DNA of 44,882 bases from a virus (Duplodnaviria > Heunggongvirae > Uroviricota > Caudoviricetes): IMG/VR virus record IMGVR_UViG_2872678658_000005, positions 1 through 44,882 of that record; one strand, 5' to 3'. Under the pieces are notes generated by a model. The model ran no database searches, was not told the DNA's origin, and saw only the letters and a program-made list of their open reading frames with translations. Shown here one piece after another: positions 1 through 44,267 of the stretch; within the stretch, counting starts at the first letter, position 1; every line of letters begins with the position of its first letter. Position numbers and translations under genes: made by a program.

Positions 1-1254
1 ATGCTGGAACAAATGGGCATTGCCGCGAAGCAAGCCTCTTATAAATTAGCGCAACTCTCCAGCCGCGAAAAAAATCGCGTGCTGGAAAAAATCGCCGATG
101 AACTGGAAGCACAAAGCGAAATCATCCTCAACGCTAACGCCCAGGATGTTGCTGACGCGCGTGCCAATGGCCTTAGCGAAGCGATGCTTGACCGTCTGGC
201 ACTGACGCCCGCACGGCTGAAAGGCATTGCCGACGATGTGCGCCAGGTGTGCAATCTCGCCGATCCGGTGGGGCGGGTAATCGATGGCGGCGTACTGGAC
301 AGTGGCCTGCGTCTGGAGCGTCGTCGCGTACCGCTGGGGGTTATTGGCGTGATTTATGAAGCGCGCCCGAACGTGACGGTTGATGTCGCTTCGCTGTGCC
401 TGAAAACAGGTAACGCAGTGATCCTGCGCGGCGGCAAAGAAACGTGTCGCACTAACGCGGCAACGGTGGCAGTGATTCAGGACGCCCTGAAATCCTGTGG
501 CTTACCGGCGGGTGCCGTGCAGGCGATTGATAATCCTGACCGTGCGCTGGTCAGTGAAATGCTGCGTATGGATAAATACATCGACATGCTGATCCCGCGC
601 GGCGGGGCTGGTTTGCATAAACTGTGCCGCGAACAGTCGACAATTCCGGTGATCACTGGTGGTATAGGCGTATGCCATATTTACGTTGATGAAAGCGCAG
701 AGATCGCTGAAGCATTAAAAGTGATCGTCAACGCGAAAACTCAGCGACCGAGCACATGTAATACGGTAGAAACGTTGCTGGTAAATAAAAACATCGCAGA
801 TAGCTTCCTGCCCGCATTAAGCAAGCAAATGGCGGAAAGTGGCGTGACGTTACACGCAGATGCTGCTGCGCTGGCGCAGTTGCAGGCAGGCCCCGCGAAG
901 GTGGTGGCTGTTAAAGCCGAAGAGTATGACGATGAGTTCCTGTCATTAGACTTGAACGTCAAAATTGTCAGCGATCTTGACGATGCTATCGCCCATATTC
1001 GTGAACACGGCACGCAACACTCCGATGCGATCCTGACCCGCGATATGCGCAACGCCCAGCGTTTTGTTAATGAAGTAGATTCATCCGCTGTTTACGTTAA
1101 CGCCTCTACGCGTTTTACCGACGGCGGCCAGTTTGGACTGGGCGCGGAAGTGGCGGTAAGCACACAAAAACTCCACGCGCGTGGCCCGATGGGCCTGGAA
1201 GCACTGACCACTTACAAGTGGATCGGCATCGGTGATTACACCATTCGTGCGTAA
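1..1254 (+). CDS. proA: gamma-glutamyl phosphate reductase (complete, 417 aa)
   Basis: Full-length ORF from the first base of the window; translation recognised as E. coli ProA (aldehyde dehydrogenase fold); TAA stop at 1252-1254. Confidence 0.95.
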
Positions 1255-1368
1255 ATAAAACCGGGTGATGCAAAAGTAGCCATTTGATTCACAAGGCCAT
1301 TGACGCATCGCCCGGTTAGTTTTAACCTTGTCCACCGTGATTCACGTTCGTGAACATGTCCTTTCAGG

Positions 1369-1444
1369 GCCGATATAGCTCAGTTGGTAGAGCAGCGCAT
1401 TCGTAATGCGAAGGTCGTAGGTTCGACTCCTATTATCGGCACCA
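1369..1444 (+). tRNA. thrW: tRNA-Thr (anticodon CGU), phage attachment target
   Basis: 76-nt sequence GCCGATATAGCTCAGTTGGTAGAGCAGCGCATTCGTAATGCG...TATCGGCACCA with a 7-bp acceptor stem and CCA end; CGT anticodon in the anticodon loop; sits immediately downstream of proA as in E. coli. Confidence 0.9.
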
Positions 1445-1461
1445 TTTAAATCAATAAGTTA
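1399..1461 (+). repeat. attL core (3' 46 nt of thrW plus about 17 nt downstream)
   Basis: Exact 63-bp direct repeat of the segment at about 43625-43687 (ATTCGTAATGCGAAGGTCGTAGGTTCGACTCCTATTATCGGCACCATTTAAATCAATAAGTTA). Confidence 0.8.
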
Positions 1462-2622
1462 CACATCATTAGTACCTTCCTTATTTTTTGACTGGGACAA
1501 ATTTGGGACCGATGGGTTCAGGATCGAGTCTATTTGCCGTGCGTGTTCGGTAAGGTGATTAGGTGCAAGGTGAGCATATCGACGAACCATTTCGATAGAC
1601 TCCCAGCCTCCCATTTCCTGTAACACTGACAACGGGACTCCGGCTTGAACCAGCCAACTTGCCCAGGTGTGTCTCAAGTCGTGAAATCTGAAATCATCAA
1701 TACCAGCCCGTCTCAGCGCCGCTTTCCAGGCTGTGTTTGCGTCATACCGCATCTTCCTTACTGTTGGCGCTTTCGTTCCGTCTGGTTTGGTACAGCTTTC
1801 CTTGTACACAAATACCCAACGGTGATGATTCCCGATTTGTTTTTTCAAAACGCGACATGCAGTATCATTCAGCGCAACGCCAATTGCGCGGTTTGATTTA
1901 CTCTCTTCCGGGTTTATCCATGCCACCCGGCGCTGCATGTCTATTTGTTGCCATTCAAGGTTGATGATGTTCGAGCGTCTTAAGCCTGTTGCCAGTGCAA
2001 ATTCAACAACAGACTTTAATGGCTCCGGACATTCATCAATCAGCCTTTGTGCTTCATGGGGCTCCAGCCAGCGGATCCGTTTATTCTTTGGTTGAGGCAC
2101 TTTAATAATTGGTGCCTTATCCAGCATTTTCCATTCACGCTCTGCGGCTCTTAGTAGGGCCTTTATAAATGAAAGATGCGTAGCCTTCGTTGCAACGGAC
2201 GCTGGTTTTGGCGTGTATTCTGGAACAGGTTTCCCTTTTTTTCTGCATGCTTCTGCCCTGAGTCTCCAGTTTTCCTCATGACGCCGGTTCGTCATTTTCT
2301 GCATTGCTGAATAAATTTTTGATTCAGTAATGTCTCTTAGTTGCATTCCTGCGAAATGTTGAAGCCAGAATCCGATCCGGCTTTTGTCATCGTCCAGTGA
2401 TTTTTTATGTGCTTTCTCTTCAAGCCACCTGACACACGCTTCCTCGAACGTTATATCAGGTATTTCACCAAGTTTGCTGACCCGCCATGCTTCAGCCTTT
2501 AGCTTGTCATGGAGTTCTGTCGCCTGCCTTTTGTCCTTTGTTCCAAGAGACTGTTTAAATCTTTTACCGTTCGGCAATGTGAAACTGGCGTACCATATTT
2601 CACCTCTGCGGAAGAGTGACAT
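1459..2622 (-). CDS. int: tyrosine integrase (P22-type, 387 aa)
   Basis: ORF translation [24 protein letters not shown]... with C-terminal HDLRHTWAS...RYAHLAP catalytic region; adjacent to attL at the tRNA-Thr site that P22-like integrases use. Confidence 0.9.
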
Positions 2623-2849
2623 TTTCTTTCCTCTGTTATGCCATCACCCGCGCTCACCTGGACAGTATGCAGCGGAGACTGAAGAGCCGCAATGCAGGCT
2701 TGTCGTGTTGTGAGGTAAGGAGATTTATTCTTAGTGGGATCTTTGCGTGTTGCCTGAAGACGCCCTGTGCGTATCCAGTTAATGGCAGTCGGTCTGGATA
2801 TCTTGAGAAAATGACAGGCCTCATCGAGTGTGAGGCTGTATGGCTCCAT
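2499..2849 (-). CDS. xis: excisionase (116 aa)
   Basis: Internal ATG of ORF 2499..2933 giving [31 protein letters not shown] (Xis-type HTH); start overlaps the stop of the upstream gene (TAATG); 3' end overlaps the int start as in P22-like int-xis pairs. Confidence 0.8.
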
Positions 2850-3154
2850 TATTTCACCTCTTGCTGTGACATTGTTGAAAAATGGATACCAGCTCGTTGC
2901 TGCCAGACGATCCAACCGAGAGTCATATCCCATGCCATGTATTCGTTATTGCCGTTTTTTGCTCTCCGACGATCTACTAAGTCACCGAAACGCTTTTCCA
3001 TGAATAATTCATAAGCTTCGCGTTCATCTGGTTCTACTTCCAGAGATAGGAGTGCGATTTCATAAGCACGGCGCTCAATATCGTCTCGCACGTCAAGGCT
3101 GCTGATACGCTCTTTAATTTCTTTAATCAGTTCTTTGTCGGTAAAAGTGGTCAT
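2849..3154 (-). CDS. hypothetical early protein (YfdT-like, 101 aa)
   Basis: ORF with start/stop overlaps to both neighbours (TAATG coupling); size and position match the last gene of the CPS-53 yfdPQRST cluster. Confidence 0.6.
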   Translation of the reverse strand: MTTFTDKELIKEIKERISSLDVRDDIERRAYEIALLSLEVEPDEREAYELFMEKRFGDLVDRRRAKNGNNEYMAWDMTLGWIVWQQRAGIHFSTMSQQEVK

Positions 3155-3516
3155 TATGCTCCAGCCTCCGGTGCTTTTGGCATTACTGCCCAGTGAGTGA
3201 TATTGACGTTTTCAAGGTCCCCGACCTGAAATGTCCACTGCCATTCTCCGGTTTCTTTTTGTCCCCAGGTGTACCAGAGAGAACGCCAACCAATTAGCCA
3301 GCCTTCTCCGTTAGCATCGAATAACAAAACACTTTCATTTGCTGGTGGCAGTTCAGTTGACACTGGTATTACTTTGTTTTCCTGTGCTGCACATTTAGCT
3401 TCAAGCGCATCGAATTTACGCACCAGGTATTCAGCATCTGTTTCATTTACTTTCAGATCTCGCGGTACACATCTCCCACGAAGAAACCCTTCCATTTCGA
3501 AAACATTCATGCGCAT
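3154..3516 (-). CDS. DUF551 protein (YfdS-like, 120 aa)
   Basis: Translation MRMNVFEMEGFLRGRCVPRDL...WLIGWRSLWYTWGQKETGEWQW, typical of prophage DUF551 proteins. Confidence 0.7.
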   Translation of the reverse strand: MRMNVFEMEGFLRGRCVPRDLKVNETDAEYLVRKFDALEAKCAAQENKVIPVSTELPPANESVLLFDANGEGWLIGWRSLWYTWGQKETGEWQWTFQVGDLENVNITHWAVMPKAPEAGA

Positions 3517-4043
3517 TTGCGTAACTCCGATAACTCGTTAAAGCGTTCCATAAACATCCCGTAGGCATGGCCCGGTGCCAGTGGAATCACGTTGAACATC
3601 TCTGTTGCCGGGATACCTTCCAGTACAGGCCAGAAAGAGCCATCATCAAGCCCGAGATCGCGGCGTTCGGTTGCCAGCATGATGAGATCGGCATATTTCA
3701 CGGGCGTACTCATAACTGGGGGTAATCCGTATTTCTCACGGATTACGGAGTCTATTTTTTCTTCCATTTGTTTATAGTCAGGAAGAAGGCGTTTCAGTGG
3801 TGCGGGAATGTCCTGGCAATACGCTTCTGTTGCATCATGCATTAACGCTTCAAAAGCAAATTTCTGCGGCACCAGCTGGCTGCAAAGAACCGCATGTTGG
3901 GCGACGCTGTAGAAGTGCGAAAGATGACCGGCAAAGCGACAGATATTTGAAAGGGAAACCGCGATATCGTTAATATCGATGTCGTCTTTATTTATCCTGT
4001 CATAATAAAAATGCTTCCCGGAAAAAGTTTTAATAAATGACAT
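3507..4043 (-). CDS. HD-domain phosphohydrolase (YfdR-like, 178 aa)
   Basis: Start taken at MSFIKTF (GGAG 6 nt upstream); H...HD metal-binding motif (SHFYSVAQHAV...LMHDATEAY). Confidence 0.75.
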   Translation of the reverse strand: MSFIKTFSGKHFYYDRINKDDIDINDIAVSLSNICRFAGHLSHFYSVAQHAVLCSQLVPQKFAFEALMHDATEAYCQDIPAPLKRLLPDYKQMEEKIDSVIREKYGLPPVMSTPVKYADLIMLATERRDLGLDDGSFWPVLEGIPATEMFNVIPLAPGHAYGMFMERFNELSELRKCA

Positions 4044-4170
4044 TTTGTTCTCCACGTATATGCGCTGCACCGCGCTGAATTCTGGTAAAAAGAATCCCTC
4101 ACCATCCGGCGATTATTGAGTAAATTACGTTTCCATAAATGCCCCCGCAGGGGCATTTGCAGTAATGAAA

Positions 4171-4995
4171 TCAGGCGGTGAAAGTACCAATAAAGGTTTC
4201 TACTTTGCTGTCCTTGAATTTCTCAACAAGCAGATCACGAAATTCGTTAGCCATTTCTTCCTGCACCGCCTCCAGCTGAATAATGCGCAGAACCAGTACC
4301 GGACGATCGCCAGTGATAATGCTGAGGCGTAATTTAAACGGACGTTCTTTCAGACCTTCAAACGGAATGCATTTAAATTCAAATGCCACTGGCATAATGT
4401 CTTTGGTCTTCGCTTCGACAGACTCCATCAGGGAGCGTTTGCCGCTGAAGTCATTATCTTCAAAATCAGCGGTCTGGTTTGCTTCAATCGTGATTTTACG
4501 GACCGCCGCAGCCGCTTTTGTTGCCTGAATGGTGTCACCATTAGCATCAAAGCCCACAAGGTAGTCGGCCCAGTCTTCAATCCATTCTGCCAGTGATTTC
4601 TGGGAGTTACGCTCGCCATTAACAGACAACAGAGCAGAGAACGGTGCTGTCTTTTTCAGTTTGAGAGTGGCGGTGTTATCTGCGTGACCTGGTTCATCAA
4701 TAGTACCCAGGTTAAGCACACTGACGGCACGCATATTATCAGCATCGATAAAGCAGCGGGTGCCTTCATCTGCAAGATCTTTAGAATAACGGGTAAAGTC
4801 ATCGATGCTGGCAGTGGAAAGCGCACCACGGAAACGGAAGCGATTTAAATTAAATTTTTCCAGATCATGAATGCGGAAATTCTCAGGCAATGCCACAGCA
4901 TCGGCACCAATCTTACTGATAATTTCATTAACACCCTGAGCAGAAATAAGGGCATGGATTTGATTAATTGCGGTTGCGTCTAAGTTCTGAGACAT
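4171..4995 (-). CDS. DUF2303 protein (YfdQ-like, 274 aa)
   Basis: Translation [28 protein letters not shown]...; GAGGA Shine-Dalgarno upstream of the ATG. Confidence 0.75.
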
Positions 4996-33130: not shown

Positions 33131-36100
33131 ATGGGTAAAGGCAGCAGTAAGGGGCATACCCCGCGCGAAGCGAAGGACAACCTGAAGTCCACGCAGATGC
33201 TGAGCGTGATAGACGCCATCAGTGAAGGGCCGATTGAAGGTCCGGTGGACGGATTAAAAAGTGTGCTGCTGAACAGTACGCCGGTGCTGGACAGTGAGGG
33301 GAATACCAACATTTCCGGTGTCACGGTGGTGTTCCGGGCAGGTGAGCAGGAGCAGACACCGCCGGAGGGATTTGAATCCTCCGGCTCCGAGACGGTGCTG
33401 GGTACGGAAGTGAAGTACGACACGCCGATTACCCGGACCATCACGTCTGCAAACATCGACCGTCTGCGCTTTACCTTCGGTGTGCAGGCACTGGTGGAAA
33501 CTACCTCAAAGGGGGACCGGAATCCGTCGGAAGTCCGCCTGCTGGTTCAGATACAGCGTAACGGTGGCTGGGTGACGGAAAAAGACATCACCATTAAAGG
33601 CAAAACCACCTCGCAGTATCTGGCCTCGGTGGTGGTGGATAACCTGCCGCCGCGCCCGTTTAATATCCGGATGCGCAGGATGACGCCGGACAGCACCACA
33701 GACCAGCTGCAGAACAAAACGCTCTGGTCGTCATACACCGAAATCATCGATGTGAAACAGTGCTACCCGAACACGGCACTGGTCGGCGTACAGGTGGACT
33801 CGGAGCAGTTCGGCAGCCAGCAGGTGAGTCGTAATTATCATCTTCGCGGGCGCATTCTGCAGGTGCCGTCGAACTATAACCCGCAGACGCGACAATACAG
33901 CGGTATCTGGGACGGAACGTTAAAACCGGCATACAGCAACAACATGGCCTGGTGTCTGTGGGATATGCTGACCCACCCGCGCTACGGCATGGGAAAACGT
34001 CTTGGTGCGGCGGATGTGGACAAATGGGCGCTGTATGTCATCGGCCAGTACTGCGACCAGTCAGTGCCGGACGGCTTTGGCGGCACGGAGCCGCGCATCA
34101 CCTGTAATGCGTACCTGACCACACAGCGCAAGGCGTGGGATGTGCTCAGTGATTTCTGCTCGGCGATGCGCTGTATGCCGGTATGGAACGGGCAGACGCT
34201 GACGTTCGTGCAGGACCGACCGTCGGATAAGGTGTGGGCCTATAACCGCAGTAATGTGGTGATGCCGGATGATGGCGCGCCGTTCCGCTACAGCTTCAGC
34301 GCCCTGAAAGACCGCCATAATGCCGTTGAGGTGAACTGGATTGACCCGAACAACGGCTGGGAGACGGCGACAGAGCTTGTTGAAGATACGCAGGCCATTC
34401 TCCGTTACGGTCGTAATGTTACGAAGATGGATGCCTTTGGCTGTACCAGCCGGGGGCAGGCACACCGCGCCGGGCTGTGGCTGATTAAAACGGAGCTGCT
34501 GGAGACGCAGACCGTGGATTTCAGCGTCGGCGCAGAAGGGCTTCGCCATGTACCGGGCGATGTTATTGAAATCTGCGATGATGACTATGCCGGTATCAGC
34601 ACCGGTGGTCGTGTGCTGGCGGTGAACAGCCAGACCCGGACGCTGACGCTCGACCGTGAAATCACGCTGCCATCCTCCGGTACCACGCTGATAAGCCTGG
34701 TTGACGGAAGTGGCAATCCGGTCAGCGTGGAGGTTCAGTCCGTCAACGACGGCGTGAAGGTAAAAGTGAGCCGTGTTCCTGAGGGTGTTGCTGAATACAG
34801 CGTATGGGGGCTGAAGCTGCCGACGCTGCGCCAGCGCCTGTTCCGCTGCGTGAGTATCCGTGAGAACGATGACGGCACGTATGCCATCACCGCCGTGCAG
34901 CATGTACCGGAGAAAGAAGCCATCGTGGATAACGGGGCGCACTTTGACGGTGACCAGAGCGGCACGGTGAATGGTGTCACGCCGCCAGCAGTGCAGTACC
35001 TGACCGCCGAAGTCACTGCAGACAGCGGGGAATATCAGGTGCTGGCGCGATGGGACACACCGAAGGTGGTGAAGGGCGTGAGCTTCCTGCTCCGTCTGAC
35101 CGTAACAGCGGACGACGGCAGTGAGCGACTGGTCAGCACGGCCCGGACGACGGAAACCACATACCGCTTCACGCAACTGGCGCTGGGGAACTACAGGCTG
35201 ACAGTCCGGGCGGTAAATGCCCGGGGGCAGCAGGGCGATCCGGCGTCGGTATCGTTCCGGATTGCCGCACCGGCAGCACCGTCGAGGATTGAGCTGACGC
35301 CGGGCTATTTTCAGATAACCGCCACGCCGCATCTTGCCATTTATGACCCGACGGTACAGTTTGAGTTCTGGTTCTCGGAAAAGCGGATTACCGATATCAG
35401 GCAGGTTGAAACCACAGCCCGCTATCTTGGCACGGCGCTGTACTGGATAGCCGCCAGTATCAATATCAAACCGGGCCATGATTATTATTTTTACATCCGC
35501 AGTGTGAACACCGTTGGCAAATCGGCATTTGTGGAGGCTGTTGGCCAGCCGAGTGATGATGCATCCGGCTATCTGGATTTTTTCAAAGGAGAGATAGGGA
35601 AAAGCCATCTGGCTCAGGAGCTGTGGACGCAGATTGATAACGGTCAGCTTGCGCCTGACCTGGCTGAAATCAGGACGTCCATTACGGATGTCAGCAATGA
35701 AATCACGCAGACCGTCAATAAGAAACTGGAAGACCAGAGTGCGGCAATTCAGCAGATACAGAAGGTTCAGGTTGATACAAATAATAACCTGAACAGCATG
35801 TGGGCTGTGAAGCTGCAGCAGATGCAGGACGGACGCCTTTATATCGCGGGTATTGGTGCCGGTATTGAGAATACCCCTGACGGTATGCAGAGTCAGGTGC
35901 TGCTGGCGGCGGACAGGATTGCGATGATTAATCCTGCGAATGGCAACACAAAGCCGATGTTTGTTGGTCAGGGCGATCAGATATTTATGAATGAAGTGTT
36001 CCTGAAATATCTGACGGCTCCCACCATTACCAGCGGCGGTAATCCTCCGGCATTTTCCCTGACACCGGACGGGCGGCTGACGGCAAAAAATGCCGATATC

Positions 36101-36610
36101 AGCGGTAACGTGAATGCGAACTCCGGGACGCTCAACAACGTCACGATTAACGAGAACTGCCGGGTTCTGGGAAAACTGTCCGCGAACCAGATTGAAGGCG
36201 ATCTCGTTAAAACAGTGGGCAAAGCTTTCCCCCGTGACTCCCGTGCACCGGAACGGTGGCCATCAGGGACCATTACCGTCAGGGTTTATGACGATCAGCC
36301 GTTTGACCGGCAAATTGTTATTCCAGCGGTGGCTTTCAGCGGTGCCAGACATGAACGGGAGAATAGCGATACTTATTCGTCATGCCGCCTGATAGTGAAG
36401 AAAAACGGGGCTGAAATTTATAACCGAACGGCTCTGGATAATACTCTGATTTACACGGGTGTTATTGATATGCCTGCAGGCAGTGGTGTCATGACACTGG
36501 AATTTTCTGTATCGGCATGGCTGGTAAATGGCTGGTATCCCACAGCAAGTATCAGCGATTTGCTGGTTGTGGTGATGAAGAAAGCCACTGCAGGCATCAT
36601 GATTAGCTGA
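33131..36610 (+). CDS. central tail fibre / host specificity protein J (1159 aa)
   Basis: [37 protein letters not shown]... is lambda-J-like; size and position match. Confidence 0.9.
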
Positions 36611-36668: not shown

Positions 36669-39014
36669 ATGGCAGTACAGATTTCAGGTGTGCTGAAAGA
36701 TGGTGCGGGAAAACCAATACAGAACTGCACTATTCAACTGAAGGCAAAGCGTAACAGCACCACGGTACTGGTGAACACGGTGGCCTCTGAAAATCCGGAT
36801 GAAGCCGGGCGTTACAGCATGGATGTTGAGCATGGCCAGTACAGCGTCACCCTGCTGGTTGAAGGTTTTCCGCCTTCACATGCCGGAACCATTACCGTCT
36901 ATGAAGGTTCCAGACCAGGTACGCTGAATGATTTTCTCGGTGCCATGACGGAAGATGATGTCATGCCGGAGGCATTGCGTCGTTTTGAGGAAATGGTGGA
37001 AGAAGCGGCACGCAACGCTGAAGCCGCCTCTCAGAGCGCAGCGGCGGCAAAGAAATCCGAAACTGCAGCGGCATCATCGAAGAACGCGGCGAAAACCTCA
37101 GAAACGAATGCAGCTAACAGCGCACAGGCGGCAGCGGCCTCGCAGACTGCATCGGCAAACTCCGCAACAGCAGCTAAAAAATCAGAAACCAACGCGAAAA
37201 ATAGCGAGACAGCCGCAAAGACGAGCGAAACCAACGCAAAGTCCAGCCAGACGGCAGCGAAGACCAGCGAAACGAATGCCAAAGCCAGTGAAACTGCGGC
37301 AAAAAACAGCCAGGTTGCAGCAGCCCAAAGCGAGAGCGCGGCAGCCGGTTCTGCGACTTCAGCAGCTGGATCAGCAACTGCTACGGCTAACAGCCAGAAA
37401 GCTGCGAAGACGAGTGAAACTAACGCAAAGTCCAGCCAGACGGCAGCGAAGACCAGCGAAACGAATGCCAAAGCCAGCGAAACTGCGGCGAAAAACAGCC
37501 AGGTTGCAGCAGCCCAAAGCGAGAGCGCGGCAGCTGGTTCTGCAAGCGCGGCGGCTGCTTCTGCCACTGCATCAGCCAACAGTCAAAAAGCGGCAAAAAC
37601 CAGTGAAACCAATGCAAAGACAAGCGAGACTACAGCGGCGAACTCGGCGCAAGCATCGGCAGCAAGCCAGACAGCAGCTAAAGCAAGTGAGGATGCAGCC
37701 AGAGAGTATGCAAGCCAGGCAGCAGAGCCGTATAAATATGTCTTACAGCCACTGCCTGATGTGTGGATACCGTTTAACGATTCACTGGATATGCTTGCTG
37801 GCTTTTCGCCTGGTTATAAGCAAATAACTGTAGGTGATGATGTTATTAAAATGCCATCCGATAAGGTTGTTAGCTTCAAACGCGCATCAGGTGCAACATA
37901 CATTAATAAATCAGGTGTATTAACCGTTGCTGAAGTTGACGAACCGCGATTTGAACGAGAAGGTTTGCTGATTGAAGGACAGAGAACAAACTATTTCAGA
38001 AATTCAAATACACCAGAAGCATGGAATAACACGGGTAGTGTGTCTGTTGAGTCGTTCGACAGTGATAAGGGGTTTAACTATGGAAGGATAACTGTTATTA
38101 ATGAAAATCCGACAGCACAAGGATATCAGGCAATTGCTGTAAACACGAATGATGCTTACACCTGCCCGGCAGGTTCTTATACGACGATATCGTGTCTGAC
38201 GAAAAGTGATAATTCCCGGTGTCGTGCAAGGTTCGGAAAAATGTCTGATAATGGTGCGTTTGTTTTTCATTCAGATGCAGCTCTGGATCCTGTTACGGGA
38301 AATGTTGTTCATGGAAATAATGTGACGGTGACGGCAGAAAGAGTCGGTGAATGGTGGTTGTTTACCGCCACTCTTTTTGCAGATGCGGAAATGATAATCA
38401 GCTCAAGATTTGAAATCCTGGCGATGCCTGGAATCAGTATTATCCCCAATGGCTCTACGTTAGATATTGCGATGCCTCAGGCGGAGATTGGGTCGTACAG
38501 GACGTCATTTATCATTACTGAAGGGGCTCCTGGCACTCGCTCCAGCGACATGGTGACAATACCTGTAAGAAACAATATTCACCGATTACCATTCAGTGCT
38601 CTTGTTGAAGTTAATAAAAACTGGGATATCCCTCCCAGCAAATCACCATTAATCTTTAATGTTAAAGATTATCAGGAAAATGGTCTGTTCACGCATGGAT
38701 TCCGTGGTAATAATTTCTCTGATGCCGGTTCTCCTTTTATTTCTATGGGAGGGTGTAATAAATATGTGGCAACAACCCAGAGGAAAATCATTTCAGGCTT
38801 CCGTTGTGGCGCTGATGGAGATGTTCAGGCCGTATGTAATGGTGAATTATCTGTTGCGGCAAAAACAACATGGACTTCAATTGTTCCACGGGCAGTATTG
38901 CGAATTGGAGGGCAGGGCACTAATGGGGAGTATCATCTTTTTGGTCATATCCGTAATTTGCGTATCTGGCATAAAGAATTAACTGATGCGCAAATGGGGG
39001 AGAGTATTAAATGA
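36669..39014 (+). CDS. side tail fibre protein (Stf-like N-terminus, divergent AT-rich C-terminal domain, 781 aa)
   Basis: N-terminus MAVQISGVLKDGAGKPIQNCTIQLKA is lambda-Stf-like; central TSETNAK repeat region; C-terminal about 430 aa is AT-rich and unrecognised. Confidence 0.85.
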   Translation: MAVQISGVLKDGAGKPIQNCTIQLKAKRNSTTVLVNTVASENPDEAGRYSMDVEHGQYSVTLLVEGFPPSHAGTITVYEGSRPGTLNDFLGAMTEDDVMPEALRRFEEMVEEAARNAEAASQSAAAAKKSETAAASSKNAAKTSETNAANSAQAAAASQTASANSATAAKKSETNAKNSETAAKTSETNAKSSQTAAKTSETNAKASETAAKNSQVAAAQSESAAAGSATSAAGSATATANSQKAAKTSETNAKSSQTAAKTSETNAKASETAAKNSQVAAAQSESAAAGSASAAAASATASANSQKAAKTSETNAKTSETTAANSAQASAASQTAAKASEDAAREYASQAAEPYKYVLQPLPDVWIPFNDSLDMLAGFSPGYKQITVGDDVIKMPSDKVVSFKRASGATYINKSGVLTVAEVDEPRFEREGLLIEGQRTNYFRNSNTPEAWNNTGSVSVESFDSDKGFNYGRITVINENPTAQGYQAIAVNTNDAYTCPAGSYTTISCLTKSDNSRCRARFGKMSDNGAFVFHSDAALDPVTGNVVHGNNVTVTAERVGEWWLFTATLFADAEMIISSRFEILAMPGISIIPNGSTLDIAMPQAEIGSYRTSFIITEGAPGTRSSDMVTIPVRNNIHRLPFSALVEVNKNWDIPPSKSPLIFNVKDYQENGLFTHGFRGNNFSDAGSPFISMGGCNKYVATTQRKIISGFRCGADGDVQAVCNGELSVAAKTTWTSIVPRAVLRIGGQGTNGEYHLFGHIRNLRIWHKELTDAQMGESIK
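37215..37592 (+). repeat. tandem duplication (2 x about 189 bp) inside the tail fibre gene
   Basis: Two near-identical adjacent copies encoding AKTSETNAKSSQTAAKTSETNAKASETAAKNSQVAAAQSESAAAGSA... Confidence 0.6.
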
Positions 39015-39292
39015 AAGATTTAACACTCAAATTTGCAGACAGGGCCGACTTTTCGGCCTTTATGGAGAGTATTGGCTATTATGATGACGAGTCGATGCAG
39101 GATGATATTCTTATTGACGTGATAGGTAACGTGTACAAAGAAACCGGAGAACTGACTGAAGATGGCGAACCGGTATGTGTTAAGGAAGACGGATATTTTG
39201 TAAACGTGCGCATCATTAATGATGTAAAAAAATCGTCAATATTCGATAAATACGCGGTTGTTGTTGAGCATCAACTTCGTGGCTGGATGTGA
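39011..39292 (+). CDS. hypothetical acidic protein (93 aa)
   Basis: ORF overlapping the stf stop; AT-rich; no motif recognised. Confidence 0.5.
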   Translation: MKDLTLKFADRADFSAFMESIGYYDDESMQDDILIDVIGNVYKETGELTEDGEPVCVKEDGYFVNVRIINDVKKSSIFDKYAVVVEHQLRGWM

Positions 39293-39301
39293 GGGAGACA
39301 A

Positions 39302-40003
39302 ATGGCTACATCGACAGTAATTCCAGGAGATATCACCACGCTAAAGGGAGATGTCAGTAAAACTAAGGAAGATATTTCCTCAATTAACGGAAAAGTATCA
39401 ACGCTTCAGACTGATATGACCAGTGCAAAGCAGGATATCAGCACCAGATACACAAAAACTGAAGTTGATAATAAGCTGAAAAACAAACTGGAAGTGAACG
39501 ATCTGGAAAGCGGTCGTTATGGTGGAGATTTTTACCCGTTGACTGGCCGTGAAGCGTTTTATATGTGGGGATTGGGCACGACTACAGCGGCGGCAAACCT
39601 TTATCTTAATCCTGACCCTGCAATTTCGTCTGTACTGCGGTCAACATCGTCTATTCGCTATAAACATTCAGTAGAGACGATAGATTCAGAGCACGCCGAT
39701 CTCATTTTCAGGATGCGCCCTGTGTGGTACAGGTCGCAATGCGAAAATGACAGGCGTGACTGGGGATTCTACGGATTGATTGCCGAGGAAGTAGGAGAAA
39801 TTGCCCCTCAGTTTGTACACTGGCGACCAGCTAACGAAGATGATGCACCGGAAGCTATTTCCAGCAATGGCCTTGTTGCCGAAGGTGTAATGTACGAACG
39901 TCTGGTTGTTCCACTGATTCACCATATCCAGAAACTGACAGAAAGAGTTGATGAACTTCAGTCAGAATTAAAGTTGTTATCAACTTCCCGAAACGATATC
40001 TGA
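39302..40003 (+). CDS. short fibre-like protein with C-terminal intramolecular chaperone (Peptidase S74-like) domain (233 aa)
   Basis: N-terminal coiled-coil (TLKGDVSKTKEDISSINGKVSTLQTDMTSAKQDIS); C-terminal region with SSIRYK (Ser...Lys), RPVWYR and GFYGLIAEEVGEIAPQFV...LVVPLIHHIQKL resembles the self-cleaving chaperone of endosialidase and tail-fibre proteins. Confidence 0.6.
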   Translation: MATSTVIPGDITTLKGDVSKTKEDISSINGKVSTLQTDMTSAKQDISTRYTKTEVDNKLKNKLEVNDLESGRYGGDFYPLTGREAFYMWGLGTTTAAANLYLNPDPAISSVLRSTSSIRYKHSVETIDSEHADLIFRMRPVWYRSQCENDRRDWGFYGLIAEEVGEIAPQFVHWRPANEDDAPEAISSNGLVAEGVMYERLVVPLIHHIQKLTERVDELQSELKLLSTSRNDI

Positions 40004-40016
40004 TAAAGGAGGAGTA

Positions 40017-40304
40017 ATGGATATAAGCCCCTTACTTCATGCACTTTGTGCTGTGGCTGCGCAGGTACTGGTTGGTCTTTTTACCGGAAACTGGGCTTAC
40101 GGTGCGATAGCTGGTTGTACGTTCTTCATCGCTCGTGAACATACCCAGGCAGAATATCGCTGGATTGAAATGTTCGGGCATGGCAAGCGAATGAATATGC
40201 CGTGGTGGGGCGGTTTTGATCCGCGTGCTTGGGATGTGGCAAGCCTGATGGATTTTGCTGTGCCGGTGGTGGCGTGTCTGCTGGTCTGGCTGTTGATCCG
40301 TTAA
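40017..40304 (+). CDS. small inner-membrane protein (95 aa)
   Basis: Two predicted TM segments; the 3' 120 bp has an about 85% identical paralogous fragment outside attR at about 43862-43984. Confidence 0.55.
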   Translation: MDISPLLHALCAVAAQVLVGLFTGNWAYGAIAGCTFFIAREHTQAEYRWIEMFGHGKRMNMPWWGGFDPRAWDVASLMDFAVPVVACLLVWLLIR

Positions 40305-40312
40305 GCATAAGA

Positions 40313-40348
40313 ATCCGCAGTGTCTTGCCATGACAAGTTACTGCGGAT
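40313..40348. repeat. perfect 9-bp inverted repeat hairpin
   Basis: ATCCGCAGT-(18 nt, itself containing CTTG..CAAG)-ACTGCGGAT just after the membrane protein gene. Confidence 0.4.
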
Positions 40349-40499
40349 GGCTGGTGAACTTCCGATAGTGCAAGTATTGAATGATTGCCAGTCACAGCGG
40401 ATTGTACTTAGGTAATATGACGGTTCAAGGCGTTTAAACTGAAACCATCCACATATCAGTCTCTTCAAACATTTCCTAAATCGTTCGGCTTATCTGTTC

Positions 40500-40969
40500 T
40501 TTCTCACGTTTGCTGACGTCAGTGCTGATTGCCGGCAGTGTCATCATCGGTTTTACACGATACCCTTTGCGTTGAACGAGTCGTACTACTGTAACAGCGC
40601 GTCGGTGAAGCTGCTCATCCCGACACAGGACAGTCGGGATATCATTGCAGTAGCAACGGGGAGTCTGGATGCAATATGGAAAGACGGACACCGATATCAG
40701 AAAGCCGGGGTAATGCTGGGGGACTTCTTCAGTCAGAGCATGCCCTAACCTATTCGACGATAACGCGCTGGGTCCTGGGAGCGAAAAGTTAATGAGCGTG
40801 CTGGAGCACCTCAACGCAAAAGACGGGAAGGAAACACTCTGTTTCGCTGGGCAGGGCATTCAGCAGCAGTGGCAGATGAAACGCGAGATATTTTCGCACC
40901 GGTATACAACTAGATTTTCTGGCATTTTAGGTGGTTAGATAGATATTTATGCTCTACGCAATGAATATG
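40500..40969 (+). pseudogene. 5'-truncated, frameshifted umuC-like (Y-family polymerase) fragment
   Basis: Across two or three frames the translation reads ...SVKLLIPTQDSRDIIAVATGSLDAIWKDGHRYQKAGVMLGDFFSQ / NLFDDNALGPGSEKLMSVLEHLNAKDGKETLCFAGQGIQQQWQMKREIFSHRYTTR..., matching the UmuC C-terminal region; no start codon or N-terminal polymerase domain. Confidence 0.6.
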
Positions 40970-40975
40970 AGAGAA

Positions 40976-41641
40976 TTAATTGTCTAAGCTGGTATAATAT
41001 GAATAAAGGCTTTTTCCCATTATTTTCTCTAAATCCTTTTTGTTTCTAAAGAAAATGTTTGAGATATGCTGATGATAATACTTTATAATGATTCTCATCA
41101 GCGCCGATACTACCTCATGAAGTTTTTTCACCATTTTATGCTGTGTTGAATTACAATCTCCCTCCATAAGTGATATAAATGTTGATGTAACATTTAGGTT
41201 CGCTTGGGGGGAGGAGTGAACATAATAACAGGCGTTAATATAGACATTATGTAAATAAGACCAGCCTTCATCGACTTGTTGGGCTTTTAAGAAGTCAAAG
41301 TCTCTACGACGTACAGTTTGGTCAAAATCCCCACCATTGTAGTTCTTATTGAGGCTTATTCTGGCCACATGCTCCACCATTGAGCGGAAGTTCAGTTGGA
41401 GATACCGTTCTCTTTTTTTTATAATGGCAATTAAGGAGTTTAAGGTATCATATATAAAACCTTTTATATAAGAAGAGTGATTTAGATTAGGATTGTGACT
41501 TAAAATTGTATTACAAAGACTTATTTGCCTAAATATTGATACTGATTTGTTTATTTCATCAGTGGTTCTGAGGTGCTTTTGCACCTCCGCTCTAAAATAA
41601 TTTACATCTCTTCCAATGTTGAAGGGATCCTGCGTGAGCAT
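40976..41641 (-). CDS. hypothetical protein (221 aa), third gene of the AT-rich operon
   Basis: Start overlaps the stop of the upstream gene (TAATG); no domain recognised; contains RSMVEH and RIIIKYYH (Rx4-6H-like) stretches. Confidence 0.6.
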   Translation of the reverse strand: MLTQDPFNIGRDVNYFRAEVQKHLRTTDEINKSVSIFRQISLCNTILSHNPNLNHSSYIKGFIYDTLNSLIAIIKKRERYLQLNFRSMVEHVARISLNKNYNGGDFDQTVRRRDFDFLKAQQVDEGWSYLHNVYINACYYVHSSPQANLNVTSTFISLMEGDCNSTQHKMVKKLHEVVSALMRIIIKYYHQHISNIFFRNKKDLEKIMGKSLYSYYTSLDN

Positions 41642-42039
41642 TATTCTTCTTCCTTTTTATTTGCATTAATCCAAATATTTAAATTCCTTATAGCATGCTT
41701 GCTTTTAGATGTGGATTTTTGGCTTGTTTTATTTGCATCATTAAAAATAATGTCTAATGTGTTAATGTTGTTTAAGAAATGCGTATAAGCCATCTTTATG
41801 TCATTCTCACTTAATTCATTAATATGTTTGCAAATTTTAGCGCACATCAAAGTTCTTGACCGTACAGCATAATTCAAAAAAGATATTTTGAAGGTTTTGT
41901 TAATAAATTTACTAACATCAAAATTTGATCTAAAAACCTCTTTTGAAAGAATCAACATAATTACCAAGCCTAAGAAGTTTTCTTTGGTCATGGGCATATT
42001 GTTAGCTTTATTGATCGCTTTAATTAATTGTTTATTCAT
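41641..42039 (-). CDS. hypothetical protein (132 aa), second gene of the AT-rich operon
   Basis: Overlaps the ParA-like gene stop by 8 nt; hydrophobic segment FLGLVIMLILS; Lys-rich C-terminus. Confidence 0.6.
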   Translation of the reverse strand: MNKQLIKAINKANNMPMTKENFLGLVIMLILSKEVFRSNFDVSKFINKTFKISFLNYAVRSRTLMCAKICKHINELSENDIKMAYTHFLNNINTLDIIFNDANKTSQKSTSKSKHAIRNLNIWINANKKEEE

Positions 42040-42877
42040 TTGTGTTACCTTCCAAGTGAGCCACTCTGTTAATAAATTCGTTACAGATCTTTTCTATATC
42101 TTGGCGTGACTTTGAATAACAAGAAGGAATATTTCCTTGATAACCTACCATTAAATCACGCACGTAGGTTAATTGATTTTCAAAGAAATAAAAATTTGTA
42201 AATTGAGTATGGTTTTCGAATTGTTCTTTAATTTCCCTTGTTTTATTGGTCATTTCAGCATCAGTGTTTGTATAAATGTAACCGACTTGCTTGATTTCTT
42301 TCTCATGATGTGTGCGCATATTTCTTATAACGCTATTTAAACTGCTTGCTCCAAGCACCGAGTAGTGATCAATTTTAACCGGAGTAAGATAATAATCAGA
42401 AGCAAGGAGTGCGGTATCTGTAAATAATGATATTGTTGGGGGGCTATCGATAAAGATATAGTCGTAACTTTCTTTTAAGTCATTTTCGGTGATGAATTTA
42501 CGCAACATTTTTATTCTAATACCCTCTTGGTTAGTATCAAAGATAATGTTTATATCACCTAAGATAATATCAAGATTGTCTGAAACTTTAGTAATGACCT
42601 GTTCTGGTGTCACTTTCTTTTCATCTTCCATTAATGAATTTGGAAGCTCAAAAATCTTTCGAATGGTTTGATTATTAGGGCGAAGGGCAGTCATATATTC
42701 TTCTACTCGATCATAATGCCCCATTAAGGACTGAGTGGCATTAAATTGAGGATCAATATCGATAACTAGAACCTTGTGCCCCATATGGTTGGCTAAAAAC
42801 TCAGCAATCCCAACGCATAAAGTTGTTTTACCAACCCCACCTTTCATATTGATAAAACTAATTACTGGTGCAGTCAT
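42032..42877 (-). CDS. ParA/MinD-family P-loop ATPase (281 aa)
   Basis: Deviant Walker A KGGVGKTT near the N-terminus, DIDPQ and IFIDSPP motifs; AAGGA RBS; palindromic operator-like sites (GTGAA-N5-TTCAC, ATGC-N5-GCAT) in its upstream region. Confidence 0.8.
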   Translation of the reverse strand: MTAPVISFINMKGGVGKTTLCVGIAEFLANHMGHKVLVIDIDPQFNATQSLMGHYDRVEEYMTALRPNNQTIRKIFELPNSLMEDEKKVTPEQVITKVSDNLDIILGDINIIFDTNQEGIRIKMLRKFITENDLKESYDYIFIDSPPTISLFTDTALLASDYYLTPVKIDHYSVLGASSLNSVIRNMRTHHEKEIKQVGYIYTNTDAEMTNKTREIKEQFENHTQFTNFYFFENQLTYVRDLMVGYQGNIPSCYSKSRQDIEKICNEFINRVAHLEGNTNE

Positions 42878-43424
42878 TTTTTCATCCTTAATTATGTAGT
42901 GTGAAATAGATTCACTATGCTGAAAGCATTTTTTAGCTTAATTTTTATACTGCGCGTTGACTTATCACCCTATCATATATGATTTTTAGGTGTTGCATAG
43001 ACTGGTTTTATATCAGGGGCTTAGGTTGTATGTGGCGTCACAGAATCACTAATCATTGAACTTTGTACATGTAACGGTCAGGTTAAATAATATATAATGG
43101 GTTGTTAAGTTGGCTCTCTGATTCCTGATGCCCCAAGGACGCGCGTCATTGCGTGCCAGATTAACTTTTCGGCGGGCACAGTGCTATCGGCAATTATTTC
43201 CTCAGCCTCTTTCCCGCATAGGTCTTGGCGCATCCATTTTCTTGCTATGAAATCTCCAGCCGGTCAGACTGAAAGTATAGAAGAGAATATGCGAATCGCT
43301 GTTCCGGTGTTTCTGGGAGAGCTTATGTCGGAGTAATTCCCCGGTAATTGAATCTCTTTTGCTCGCTCATAACAGACATTCACTACAGTTATGGTAGAAA
43401 GTATGTATGCTGATTGGGGAAAGT

Positions 43425-43559
43425 GTGAAAGAAAAGAAGACTGCTGCGCTGTTTGTCGTCACGTTTATCTTCATTGGCTATGCAAGTCATAATACAAGGT
43501 GGGACAAAACTGAGACACATAAGGCCTCACAATGGCTTGCAAGGCTTTACATGTTTTGA
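43425..43559 (+). CDS. possible small hydrophobic peptide (44 aa)
   Basis: GTG-initiated ORF with GGGGA upstream and a hydrophobic core; below the ORF-track size cutoff; coordinates counted by eye. Confidence 0.2.
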   Translation: MKEKKTAALFVVTFIFIGYASHNTRWDKTETHKASQWLARLYMF

Positions 43560-43624
43560 TGTGGTGGGACGTGTGAGCACAGTGTTGATGGGGTAATACT
43601 TTGAATTAGAAGCGGATTCTTATA

Positions 43625-43687
43625 ATTCGTAATGCGAAGGTCGTAGGTTCGACTCCTATTATCGGCACCATTTAAATCAATAAGTTA
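43625..43687 (+). repeat. attR core (partial thrW 3' copy)
   Basis: Second copy of the 63-bp repeat; the tRNA 5' half is absent, so the intact thrW is the attL copy. Confidence 0.8.
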
Positions 43688-43815
43688 TCTCACATTTAAG
43701 TAAACTACGTTCTCCTCTTGTGCCTTTGATTTTGCTCGCGTGCGCGGTGAAATGCCTGACTGAAAGGTGAGCATATCGACGAACCATTTCGAGAGTTTCC
43801 CATCTGCTCATTTTT
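43688..43815 (-). pseudogene. integrase 3'-end remnant outside attR
   Basis: AAGGTGAGCATATCGACGAACCATTTCGAGAG matches the int 3' end at about 1565-1605 (35 of 39 nt); reads ...[13 protein letters not shown]... on the minus strand with no upstream gene body. Confidence 0.55.
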
Positions 43816-43861
43816 AAGTGCAAGCAGGAAAACACCGGACTAAACCAATCAGCTGTTCGAA

Positions 43862-43984
43862 AATGGCAAGCGGATTAATATGCCATGGCGGGGCAGCTTT
43901 GAGCCGCACGCATGGGGTGTGGCAAGCCTGATGGATTTTGCTGTGCCTGTGGTGGCGTGTTTGCTGGTTTGGCTGTTGGTTAAA
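43862..43984 (+). pseudogene. 3' fragment paralogous to the 40017-40304 membrane protein gene
   Basis: About 85% identical to 40180-40304 (...NMPWRGSFEPHAWGVASLMDFAVPVVACLLVWLL...); no 5' part. Confidence 0.5.
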
Positions 43985-44267
43985 CGCGAAAGTCATAATG
44001 CCAGGGGAATACCGCAGGGTGTTCAGGTTTTGCATAAAAAAGCCCACCATTAAGGTGGGCAAAAGGAATGATTTATATTCTCTGAGAGAAACATTACATT
44101 TCTCCTTGTCACTTCTAACATAAAAATATGGAGAAATAATGGAGCTTATATTAATTGGCGATTAGGTAACCATGTGGTTATACAAAACAATACAGTTCTT
44201 TACATTTGCCTTGTTTTATGAATACTCCTGAAGAGGTGTACAACATAATTAAACAAACAGGGTAAAT

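Follow-up and report, generated by a model that had tools for sequence, protein, structure and literature searches.

A putative two-part side tail fibre and a separate membrane protein gene in the tfa position of a lambdoid Escherichia coli prophage

The window considered here, a 44,882-nucleotide (nt) stretch of DNA (IMG/VR record IMGVR_UViG_2872678658_000005), is chromosomal DNA of Escherichia coli ampC_0069 holding a lambdoid prophage (100% match), and it raises the question of what a prophage of this kind keeps behind its side tail fibre gene, stf, in the place where lambda has tfa. Side or lateral tail fibres determine the set of strains whose O-antigen layer a phage can get through, and in host-range engineering they are the parts that are swapped. 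The place in question is filled by three plus-strand genes, which encode proteins of 93 amino acids (aa; 39011–39292), 233 aa (39302–40003) and 95 aa (40017–40304). A sequence-only reading had put three open reading frames (ORFs) at these positions behind stf, and the RefSeq annotation of ampC_0069 contains the same three, on the same strand and with identical coordinates. The explanation that best covers the whole, held with a little more confidence than doubt, is a two-part Stf fibre followed by a separate, lysogeny-associated membrane protein gene; judged by homology and gene order, Stf would form, together with the 93-aa and 233-aa proteins, a bipartite lateral or side tail fibre of an already known kind.

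According to this explanation, the 233-aa protein would trimerise with the help of its C-terminal domain, and self-cleavage of the trimer behind Ser116 would reduce it to a stub fibre of 12.6 kDa. With its N-terminal peptide the stub would attach to the Stf end and form a second receptor-binding tip, as proposed for Gp22/Gp24 of phage IrisVonRoten and LtfA/LtfB of phage DT57C, with the 93-aa protein as a joint or assembly factor at the junction between Stf and the distal part. The 95-aa protein would be made in the lysogen, and its target in the cell envelope would be the receptor, or the route of entry, on which phages with such a fibre depend; its action by surface conversion or superinfection exclusion would be the weakest step of the proposal.

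The side tail fibre and a putative short second fibre protein

The stf gene (36669–39014, plus strand) encodes the proximal fibre protein of 781–783 aa, which was assigned from Pfam, NCBIfam and homology and starts with a virion-attachment domain (residues 3–133, Pfam phage_tail_N, E=4e-67), continues as a repetitive shaft rich in Ala and closes with a conserved region of about 400 aa; residues 436–627 match the GTA_spike_fiber domain of NCBIfam. The C-terminal region ends in RIGGQ..HLFGHIRNLRIWHKELTDAQ, and its 403 aa show 34–50% identity to fibres in 210 phage records. All seven large fibres examined have this region in common (34–45% identity), ending in RIGGQ..HLFGH.RN.RIWH..LTD.Q. The phage_tail_N domain occurs only in Stf, and the 233-aa protein has no attachment domain in Pfam. 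Within the Ala-rich shaft, a 189-nt (63-aa) unit is tandemly duplicated at 37181–37558, the copies being 86% identical.

In the 233-aa protein, residues 116–172 match Pfam Peptidase_S74 (PF13884) over profile positions 1–57 of 58 with 27.1 bits and E=5e-6, the curated gathering cut-off of this family being 22 bits. The intramolecular-chaperone domain that the sequence-only reading had proposed is thus supported by a profile match above the cut-off and by the conserved Ser116 and Lys121, and the motifs it had quoted, SSIRYK, RPVWYR and GFYGLIAEEVGEIAPQFV, are present. In an alignment of 36 diverse homologues, down to 29% identity, the motif RSTSSxRYK has S116 and S117 nearly invariant (S116 in at least 90%) and Y120 and K121 invariant. 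The Ser-x4-Lys pair (Ser116 codon 39647–39649, Lys121 codon 39662–39664) lies at the N-terminal boundary of the S74 domain and aligns with TSGIEYK of 8hqz_d, the best PDB sequence match of the protein (E=2e-7), an L-shaped tail fibre chain of 1076 aa which, from chain length and name, we take to be LtfA of DT57C. The S74 domain is predicted to be released by autocleavage after folding, and cleavage after Ser116 would give products of 12.6 kDa (residues 1–116) and 13.6 kDa. The AlphaFold (AF2) monomer has a mean predicted local distance difference test score (pLDDT) of 59, with residues 62–127 below 50; the top and sole significant Foldseek match in the PDB, found with the C-terminal half of this low-confidence monomer, is the ICA domain of MyRF (7dc3_B, probability 1.0, E=2.7e-3, target TM 0.55), and the endosialidase chaperone 3gw6 is the third-ranked, weak match.

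The protein begins with the conserved peptide MATSTVIPGDITTLKG (residues 1–16; 39302–39349, plus strand), the proposed docking end. This is followed by a helical or coiled-coil shaft of about residues 11–69 (39332–39508, plus strand), which is marked by AF2 helices at residues 11–47, 52–62 and 65–69, contains the fibre motif YTKTEVDNKL and is supported by sequence matches, the N-terminal half of the protein matching the trimeric coiled coil of the P22-type tail needle gp26 as well as the repeat region of 8hqz_d. The coiled-coil N-terminus had earlier been put at about 110 aa; a helical part exists, but it covers only about residues 11–69. The small tip, residues 70–116 (39509–39649, plus strand), is marked by the segment TTTAAANLYLNPDPAISSVLRSTS, conserved across the family with N99 and R113 invariant, and ends at the predicted cleavage site, behind which residues 117–233 (39650–40000, plus strand) are assigned to the intramolecular chaperone and auto-processing domain from the S74 match and the Ser/Lys pair. 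The whole is read as a minimal distal fibre made of a docking peptide, a coiled coil of about 60 residues, a tip of about 45 residues and a chaperone that would remove itself; it is so read because of homology and synteny with the IrisVonRoten trio and because the attachment domain is found only in Stf. The mature product had been called unusually short for a fibre: a short predicted product, residues 1–116, is supported. A full length of about 230 aa is the norm of the subfamily, and both T1-like phages and E. coli prophages usually have a form of 227–245 aa. Tandem repeats of the N-terminal peptide occur in some of the short distal fibres, for instance in phage tunus (3792–4529 of its locus), which has IPSDITKLKNDVSTLKQDV and then IPGDITKLKSDVSTLKQDV.

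The arrangement recurs as a trio composed of a large fibre, an overlapping acidic protein of 85–110 aa and a second protein starting M-[AV]-T-x-T-x-I-P-x-D-I-x-x-L-K, and it is found in lambdoid, T1-like, Dhillonvirus, Nonagvirus and T5-like phages. Fibre, 93-aa protein and distal fibre follow one another in the lambdoid 2G7b, IdasGreatGrand and E. coli 042 prophage and in the virulent Nonagvirus ESCO3; similarly, the trio is formed by gp81–83 of the T1-like tunus, gp28–30 of the Dhillonvirus KarlBarth and gp22–24 of the T5-like IrisVonRoten. The fibre C-terminal region is present in 210 phage records and a 93-aa homologue in 183, and the two genes abut wherever both positions are listed. The 27-aa N-terminal peptide of the 233-aa protein was found by tblastn in 64 phage records, and it starts 10–19 nt downstream of the 93-aa gene in every record with both positions available. 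In all five groups the same N-terminal start heads otherwise unrelated distal fibres of 98–574 aa with different tips; among eight phages, the first 16 distal residues are 56–100% identical, while the remainder falls to 27–39% between tip types. The description of the cluster as unusual is not supported: the order of stf end, 93-aa gene and S74 fibre occurs in at least 64 phage records spread over the five groups, and 145 complete E. coli genomes match it over at least 80% of the query.

Public annotation implies a different role for the 233-aa protein. Full-length orthologues of about 231 aa with 55–60% identity are standard in T1-like phages, where they are annotated as 'chaperone of endosialidase' or, in KarlJaspers, PeterMerian, KurtStettler and HMD-P4, as 'putative lateral tail fiber chaperone'; read in this way, the protein would be a stand-alone chaperone that acts in trans on Stf folding and stays outside the particle. 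Such a role fits the very short mature part (116 aa) and the position of the gene in lambda's tfa slot. Stf and the 93-aa gene, however, occur without an S74 gene in Lambda_ev203, 1H12 and naswa, so that this fibre type needs none; the slot and the N-terminal peptide are shared with clear fibres of 345–574 aa that have receptor-binding domains; and residues 1–116 are constrained like the chaperone half, with ratios of non-synonymous to synonymous substitution rates (dN/dS) of 0.16–0.39 versus 0.13–0.46. To our knowledge, S74 domains have been shown to act in cis only (Schwarzer 2007, Schulz 2010). A trans chaperone is considered improbable; for the proteins labelled 'lateral tail fiber chaperone', a small fibre is the likelier identity and the label probably a mis-annotation.

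The matches to longer fibres bring in a further alternative. The 233-aa protein matches PHROG 3299, a family of unknown function with a profile of 1385 positions, only over its last ~240 positions; its matches to PHROGs 454 and 1699, both of tail fibres, are likewise limited to the C-terminal ends. In the same search, residues 1–32 matched other fibre families at their N-termini. With the PHROG 3299 match confined in this way, and fibre loci being recombination hot spots, the ORF might be a decaying, functionless C-terminal remnant of a long fibre. This reading was rejected on copy number, length conservation and dN/dS, and it is hardly credible: the 90%-identity cluster has 2928 members, the full-length members among the matches listed are 233–234 aa long, orthologues of about 231 aa are retained in compact virulent T1-like genomes, and the gene has its own start codon and ribosome-binding site and a dN/dS of 0.17–0.41.

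The minimal distal fibre is thus preferred for the 233-aa protein, and its gene is one of three that, by the following measures, are real genes under purifying selection and common in E. coli. Clusters at 90% identity have 703 (93-aa), 2928 (233-aa) and 1603 (95-aa) members; the cluster DNA is matched in part in 1954 of 5426 complete E. coli genomes, with at least 80% query coverage in 145; and dN/dS is 0.11–0.46 over the three genes in the comparisons with enough divergence. The tight packing noted earlier is confirmed: the stf stop and the start of the 93-aa gene overlap in ATGA, the following gaps are 9 and 13 nt, and ribosome-binding sites stand before the 233-aa gene (GGGAG) and the 95-aa gene (AGGAGG), a layout suited to coupled translation. 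Inside the cluster, the plus strand showed neither a promoter-like nor a terminator-like site. The guanine–cytosine (GC) content is 0.40 in the 93-aa gene, 0.45 in the 233-aa gene and 0.52 in the 95-aa gene, compared with 0.50 in the prophage, so that the description of all three as AT-rich applies to the first two but not to the third.

The 93-aa protein and the junction

The 93-aa protein is acidic, as the sequence-only reading had said (pI 4.3), it belongs to PHROG 1361, which has no assigned function, and its gene is translationally coupled to stf by the ATGA overlap. No family match was found in Pfam or NCBIfam, no similarity to tail fibre assembly families of the lambda Tfa/Mu U/T4 gp38 kind in Pfam, NCBIfam or PHROGs, and no sequence relative in the PDB. 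The best AlphaFold model is a small alpha/beta domain (pLDDT 85), the five models disagree with one another, and no diagnostic structural neighbour of the model was found; the family alignment used for modelling is shallow, with mostly near-identical E. coli sequences among the 120 matches listed. The literature consulted yielded nothing on the 93-aa or 95-aa proteins, and the papers on engineered lambda Stf and on SH6/SH7 proteomics are without this module.

The informative evidence on this protein comes from comparison. Its gene lies in a conserved junction cassette (38933–39366, plus strand), which begins with the last ~27 stf codons, takes in the entire 93-aa gene and runs ~22 codons into the distal gene. 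In 2G7b, Tritos, HannyBb and the virulent Nonagvirus ESCO3, megablast similarity of about 90–92% to the window is confined to this interval; the cassette is conserved as one DNA block, and the receptor-binding parts on either side differ. For instance, between the window and ESCO3 the small proteins are 92% identical, the Stf bodies 44% and the distal bodies 32%. In pairwise comparisons of eight phages, the identity of the 93-aa protein follows that of the last 27 residues of Stf (Spearman rho 0.59) and of the first 16 residues of the distal fibre (rho 0.70), versus rho -0.27 for the C-terminal body of Stf and 0.06 for the rest of the distal fibre. Such co-variation with both ends of the junction is expected of a joint between two exchangeable receptor-binding modules, and the 93-aa protein may tentatively be regarded, at nearly even chances, as the structural joint of the two-part fibre.

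The close rival to this view is that the 93-aa protein is an analogue of lambda Tfa, a non-structural assembly chaperone for the C-terminal region of Stf with no joining role. The protein is small and acidic and stands in the tfa position, and all loci examined, also those of phages that lack a distal fibre, have its gene translationally coupled to a fibre gene of this type. A chaperone of the Stf C-terminal region would, on the other hand, have to serve bodies that are only 42–44% identical while being itself 91–92% identical; its divergence follows the junction and not the domain to be folded, no tail fibre assembly family was matched in Pfam, NCBIfam or PHROGs, and BASEL labels the IrisVonRoten homologue 'tail fiber protein'. 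The chaperone role is a real possibility, though the structural joint is favoured over it. The exchangeable unit thereby has a defined junction, made up of Stf end, 93-aa protein and distal N-terminus, which is conserved and offers a natural splice point for tip swaps.

Some loci differ from the full trio. In Lambda_ev203 and 1H12, gene coordinates give an uninterrupted match to the fibre C-terminal region with the 93-aa and 95-aa genes directly behind it. In the rV5-like myovirus naswa (locus 62–4833), a fibre of 1479 aa shares this C-terminal region and no distal fibre follows; the small-protein homologue behind it is 110 aa long and differs in the C-terminal third. In the lambdoid 4A7, stf is interrupted by three 'mobile element protein' ORFs (917–3333 of its locus), with the last ~50 fibre codons, the small gene and the membrane protein gene intact downstream; because an insertion sequence interrupts its stf, 4A7 was rejected as a clean example of a locus lacking the S74 gene. 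The module is also carried by records MG065692.1, MG065654.1 and MG065635.1 (Campylobacter phages C12, C13 and C15) and OR848352.1 (Listeria phage LM 4-14-1), which are probably mislabelled or contaminant sequences, because they contain a coliphage fibre module and have sizes typical of T5-like and rV5-like coliphages.

The membrane protein gene and its prophage setting

The third gene (40017–40304, plus strand) encodes a small membrane protein of 95 aa, a candidate lysogeny-associated envelope factor, which belongs to PHROG 1443 (E=1e-57 to phrog_1443) and is called 'Ybl63' in UniRef. An exhaustive search gave a family of 337 representatives at 50% clustering, mostly of 90–105 aa. The hydrophobic segments are residues 5–39, whose 35 residues could form one or two helices, and a C-terminal helix at 76–94; the protein had been described as having two transmembrane segments, and its membrane nature stands, with the count at two or three. 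R40, E41, W72 and P83 are invariant in the family, H8, Q44, A45, E46 and R48 are conserved in at least 90%, and a near-invariant motif, RExxQAEYRW, lies directly behind the N-terminal hydrophobic stretch. No match was found in PADLOC and no relative in the PDB; in Pfam, neither the protein nor 43 family members gave a match, sub-threshold hits to the PhoR N-terminal domain occurring in 6 of the 43. No promoter-like site was found on the plus strand in or before the gene. Directly 3' of it lies a strong stem-loop (40313–40348; the 85-nt stretch has -24.1 kcal/mol and z -1.9), which is not a canonical intrinsic terminator because it has no U-run.

The treatment of the three genes as one unit could not be upheld, since the first two belong to the fibre and the 95-aa gene occurs elsewhere without them. 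Its homologues stand directly behind receptor-binding genes in sipho-, podo- and myoviruses, mainly temperate ones: in lambdoid phages; in the P22-like JEP4, behind the tailspike gene with overlapping stop and start and just before int; in the myovirus phiHAP-1, behind the tail fibre assembly gene, again with overlapping stop and start. Where the S74 gene is absent, the 95-aa gene follows directly behind the small gene, and it was not found in the virulent versions of the module examined. It is regarded as a separate element because it is found without the first two genes and is missing from these virulent versions.

The place beside the receptor-binding genes of temperate phages is a typical site of conversion and exclusion genes (P22 gtr, epsilon15, Cor-type), and the slot between tailspike and int holds, in P22, the O-antigen conversion genes. 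The earlier idea that the 95-aa protein excludes superinfecting phages is reasonable if unproven, because the gene lies by receptor-binding genes in mainly temperate phages, and a role in superinfection exclusion or surface conversion is plausible by analogy. The protein might instead be unrelated to receptors or exclusion, that is, a lysis-timing, envelope-stress or other accessory factor whose gene is a passenger behind the late genes. Searches matched it to no known family of exclusion, defence or conversion proteins, RExxQAEYRW suggests a specific partner, and partial matches occur in large virulent phages, all of which would suit an accessory factor; yet the gene is found repeatedly right behind a receptor-binding gene and overlapping its stop, in three tail morphotypes, it fills the tailspike–int slot in JEP4, and it is not in virulent versions of the same fibre module. 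The accessory role is quite possible, if somewhat short of an even chance.

Returning to the two-part fibre with a separate lysogeny-associated membrane gene, several points weigh against it. The attachment, cleavage and virion incorporation of the 233-aa protein are predictions, and the structure model of that protein is a low-confidence monomer (pLDDT 59). The N-terminal peptide may be a coiled-coil unit and not a specific dock, because it is internally repeated in tunus gp83. The correlation at the junction could arise by linkage alone, as the three pieces are adjacent in the DNA, and the last 27 residues of Stf resemble the final strand of a jelly-roll-type domain, so that their conservation may reflect folding. 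The 93-aa gene is also present where no distal fibre follows (Lambda_ev203, 1H12, 4A7 and naswa), and there a pure joint would have nothing to join. As for the membrane protein, its family gives partial matches in a few large virulent phages, and no known exclusion family was matched.

A bolder reading goes further: the 93-aa protein would be a portable, universal fibre joint accepting any tip, shared by at least five coliphage groups and unnoticed so far, and the 95-aa protein with its RExxQAEYRW motif would be a new envelope factor that alters or blocks a receptor pathway of the lysogen. This is considered rather unlikely as a whole; if true, a 93-aa adaptor would let distal fibres with any receptor-binding tip plug onto a conserved proximal fibre. 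Apart from this, the unnamed membrane proteins of the 95-aa family are widespread, have a motif under strong conservation and are encoded beside receptor-binding genes.

The three genes form the end of the late operon, directly behind gpJ (33131–36610, upstream of the side tail fibre gene) and stf. The prophage is bounded by a perfect 63-nt direct repeat, attL at 1399–1461 and attR at 43625–43687; attL overlaps tRNA-Thr(CGT) at 1369–1444, the integrase gene lies at 1459–2622, and yagU is annotated by RefSeq beyond the right end. Outside attR, where the sequence-only reading had seen it, the 3' part of a gene paralogous to the 95-aa gene (43854–44053, plus strand) lies beside an integrase fragment: positions 43854–43978 are 86% identical in nucleotides to 40171–40295, with a protein match of 28/35 aa, and the integrase fragment annotated by RefSeq at 43677–43835, which abuts the paralogue fragment, is 74% identical in nucleotides to part of this prophage's int. 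The two fragments together (43677–44053) are what is left of an older prophage that occupied this tRNA-Thr site before.

Between the fibre module and attR, in the flank at 40305–43600, lies a minus-strand cassette of three genes (40976–42877) with a GC content of 0.33, which encodes a ParA/AAA_31 ATPase of 281 aa and proteins of 132 and 221 aa without a family. Fragments of dinI, of a umuC-like gene (DUF4113) and of an SOS-response peptidase gene are annotated by RefSeq on its flanks. The cassette has the look of prophage cargo and is possibly a defence system; its PADLOC matches are weak and partial.

Comparison with known systems

The closest counterparts of the two-part fibre are found in T5-like and T1-like phages, and, if it is correctly read, many lambdoid E. 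coli prophages carry a two-part fibre in the T5-like style and not the Stf/Tfa pair of lambda. For IrisVonRoten (Bas32, Tequintavirus), the second BASEL paper reports that Gp22 is a proximal fibre ending in a galectin-like domain; in its model, Gp24 has an intramolecular chaperone and is the distal fibre attached to Gp22 (PMC11990801). The gp22–gp23–gp24 genes have the same order and spacing as those in the window; the C-terminal 403 aa of the proximal fibres are 45% identical and the small proteins 38%, and the IrisVonRoten distal fibre has the same N-terminal peptide (MVTKTVIPTDITKLK) and also ends in an intramolecular chaperone. Unlike the distal protein of the window, with its 233 aa and tip of about 45 residues, that of IrisVonRoten has 574 aa, is T-shaped and has two receptor-binding domains; the 95-aa membrane gene is missing from this virulent phage, and in the passages searched PMC11990801 says nothing of the small gp23 as a component of its own.

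The T1-like proteins of about 231 aa in PeterMerian, KarlJaspers, tunus (gp83) and Jahat_MG145 are direct orthologues of the 233-aa protein, with 55–60% identity over the full length and the same N-terminal peptide, and their genes have the same place behind those of a 92-aa protein and a lateral fibre. They differ in belonging to virulent phages with no membrane gene downstream and in an annotation that implies a chaperone.

For DT57C, genetics and cryo-electron microscopy support a branched fibre: LtfA holds LtfB, and LtfB provides a second O-antigen specificity (PMC4728585, PMC10713586). The LtfA–LtfB pair of DT57C and DT571/2 resembles the present module in consisting of two fibre proteins, the first with the sole anchor to the tail, the second attached through the first and adding a second specificity; both LtfA and LtfB have C-terminal autocleaving S74 domains. 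In contrast to the docking proposed here, LtfB is proposed to attach to the middle of the LtfA shaft and not to its C-terminal end, and no protein of the 93-aa type was seen in the LtfA/LtfB system in the text read.

The chaperones of endosialidase and T5 pb1 (PF13884; 3gw6, 7dc3) share with the 233-aa protein the C-terminal location, the Ser-x4-Lys at the start of the domain and a long C-terminal helix, but the passenger in the window, at only 116 residues, is far shorter, and cleavage is here a prediction. Lambda itself has the same N-terminal attachment domain in Stf and, likewise, accessory genes directly downstream; the window differs from it in having no Tfa homologue in Pfam, NCBIfam or PHROGs, a fibre tip of another type and a second fibre gene.

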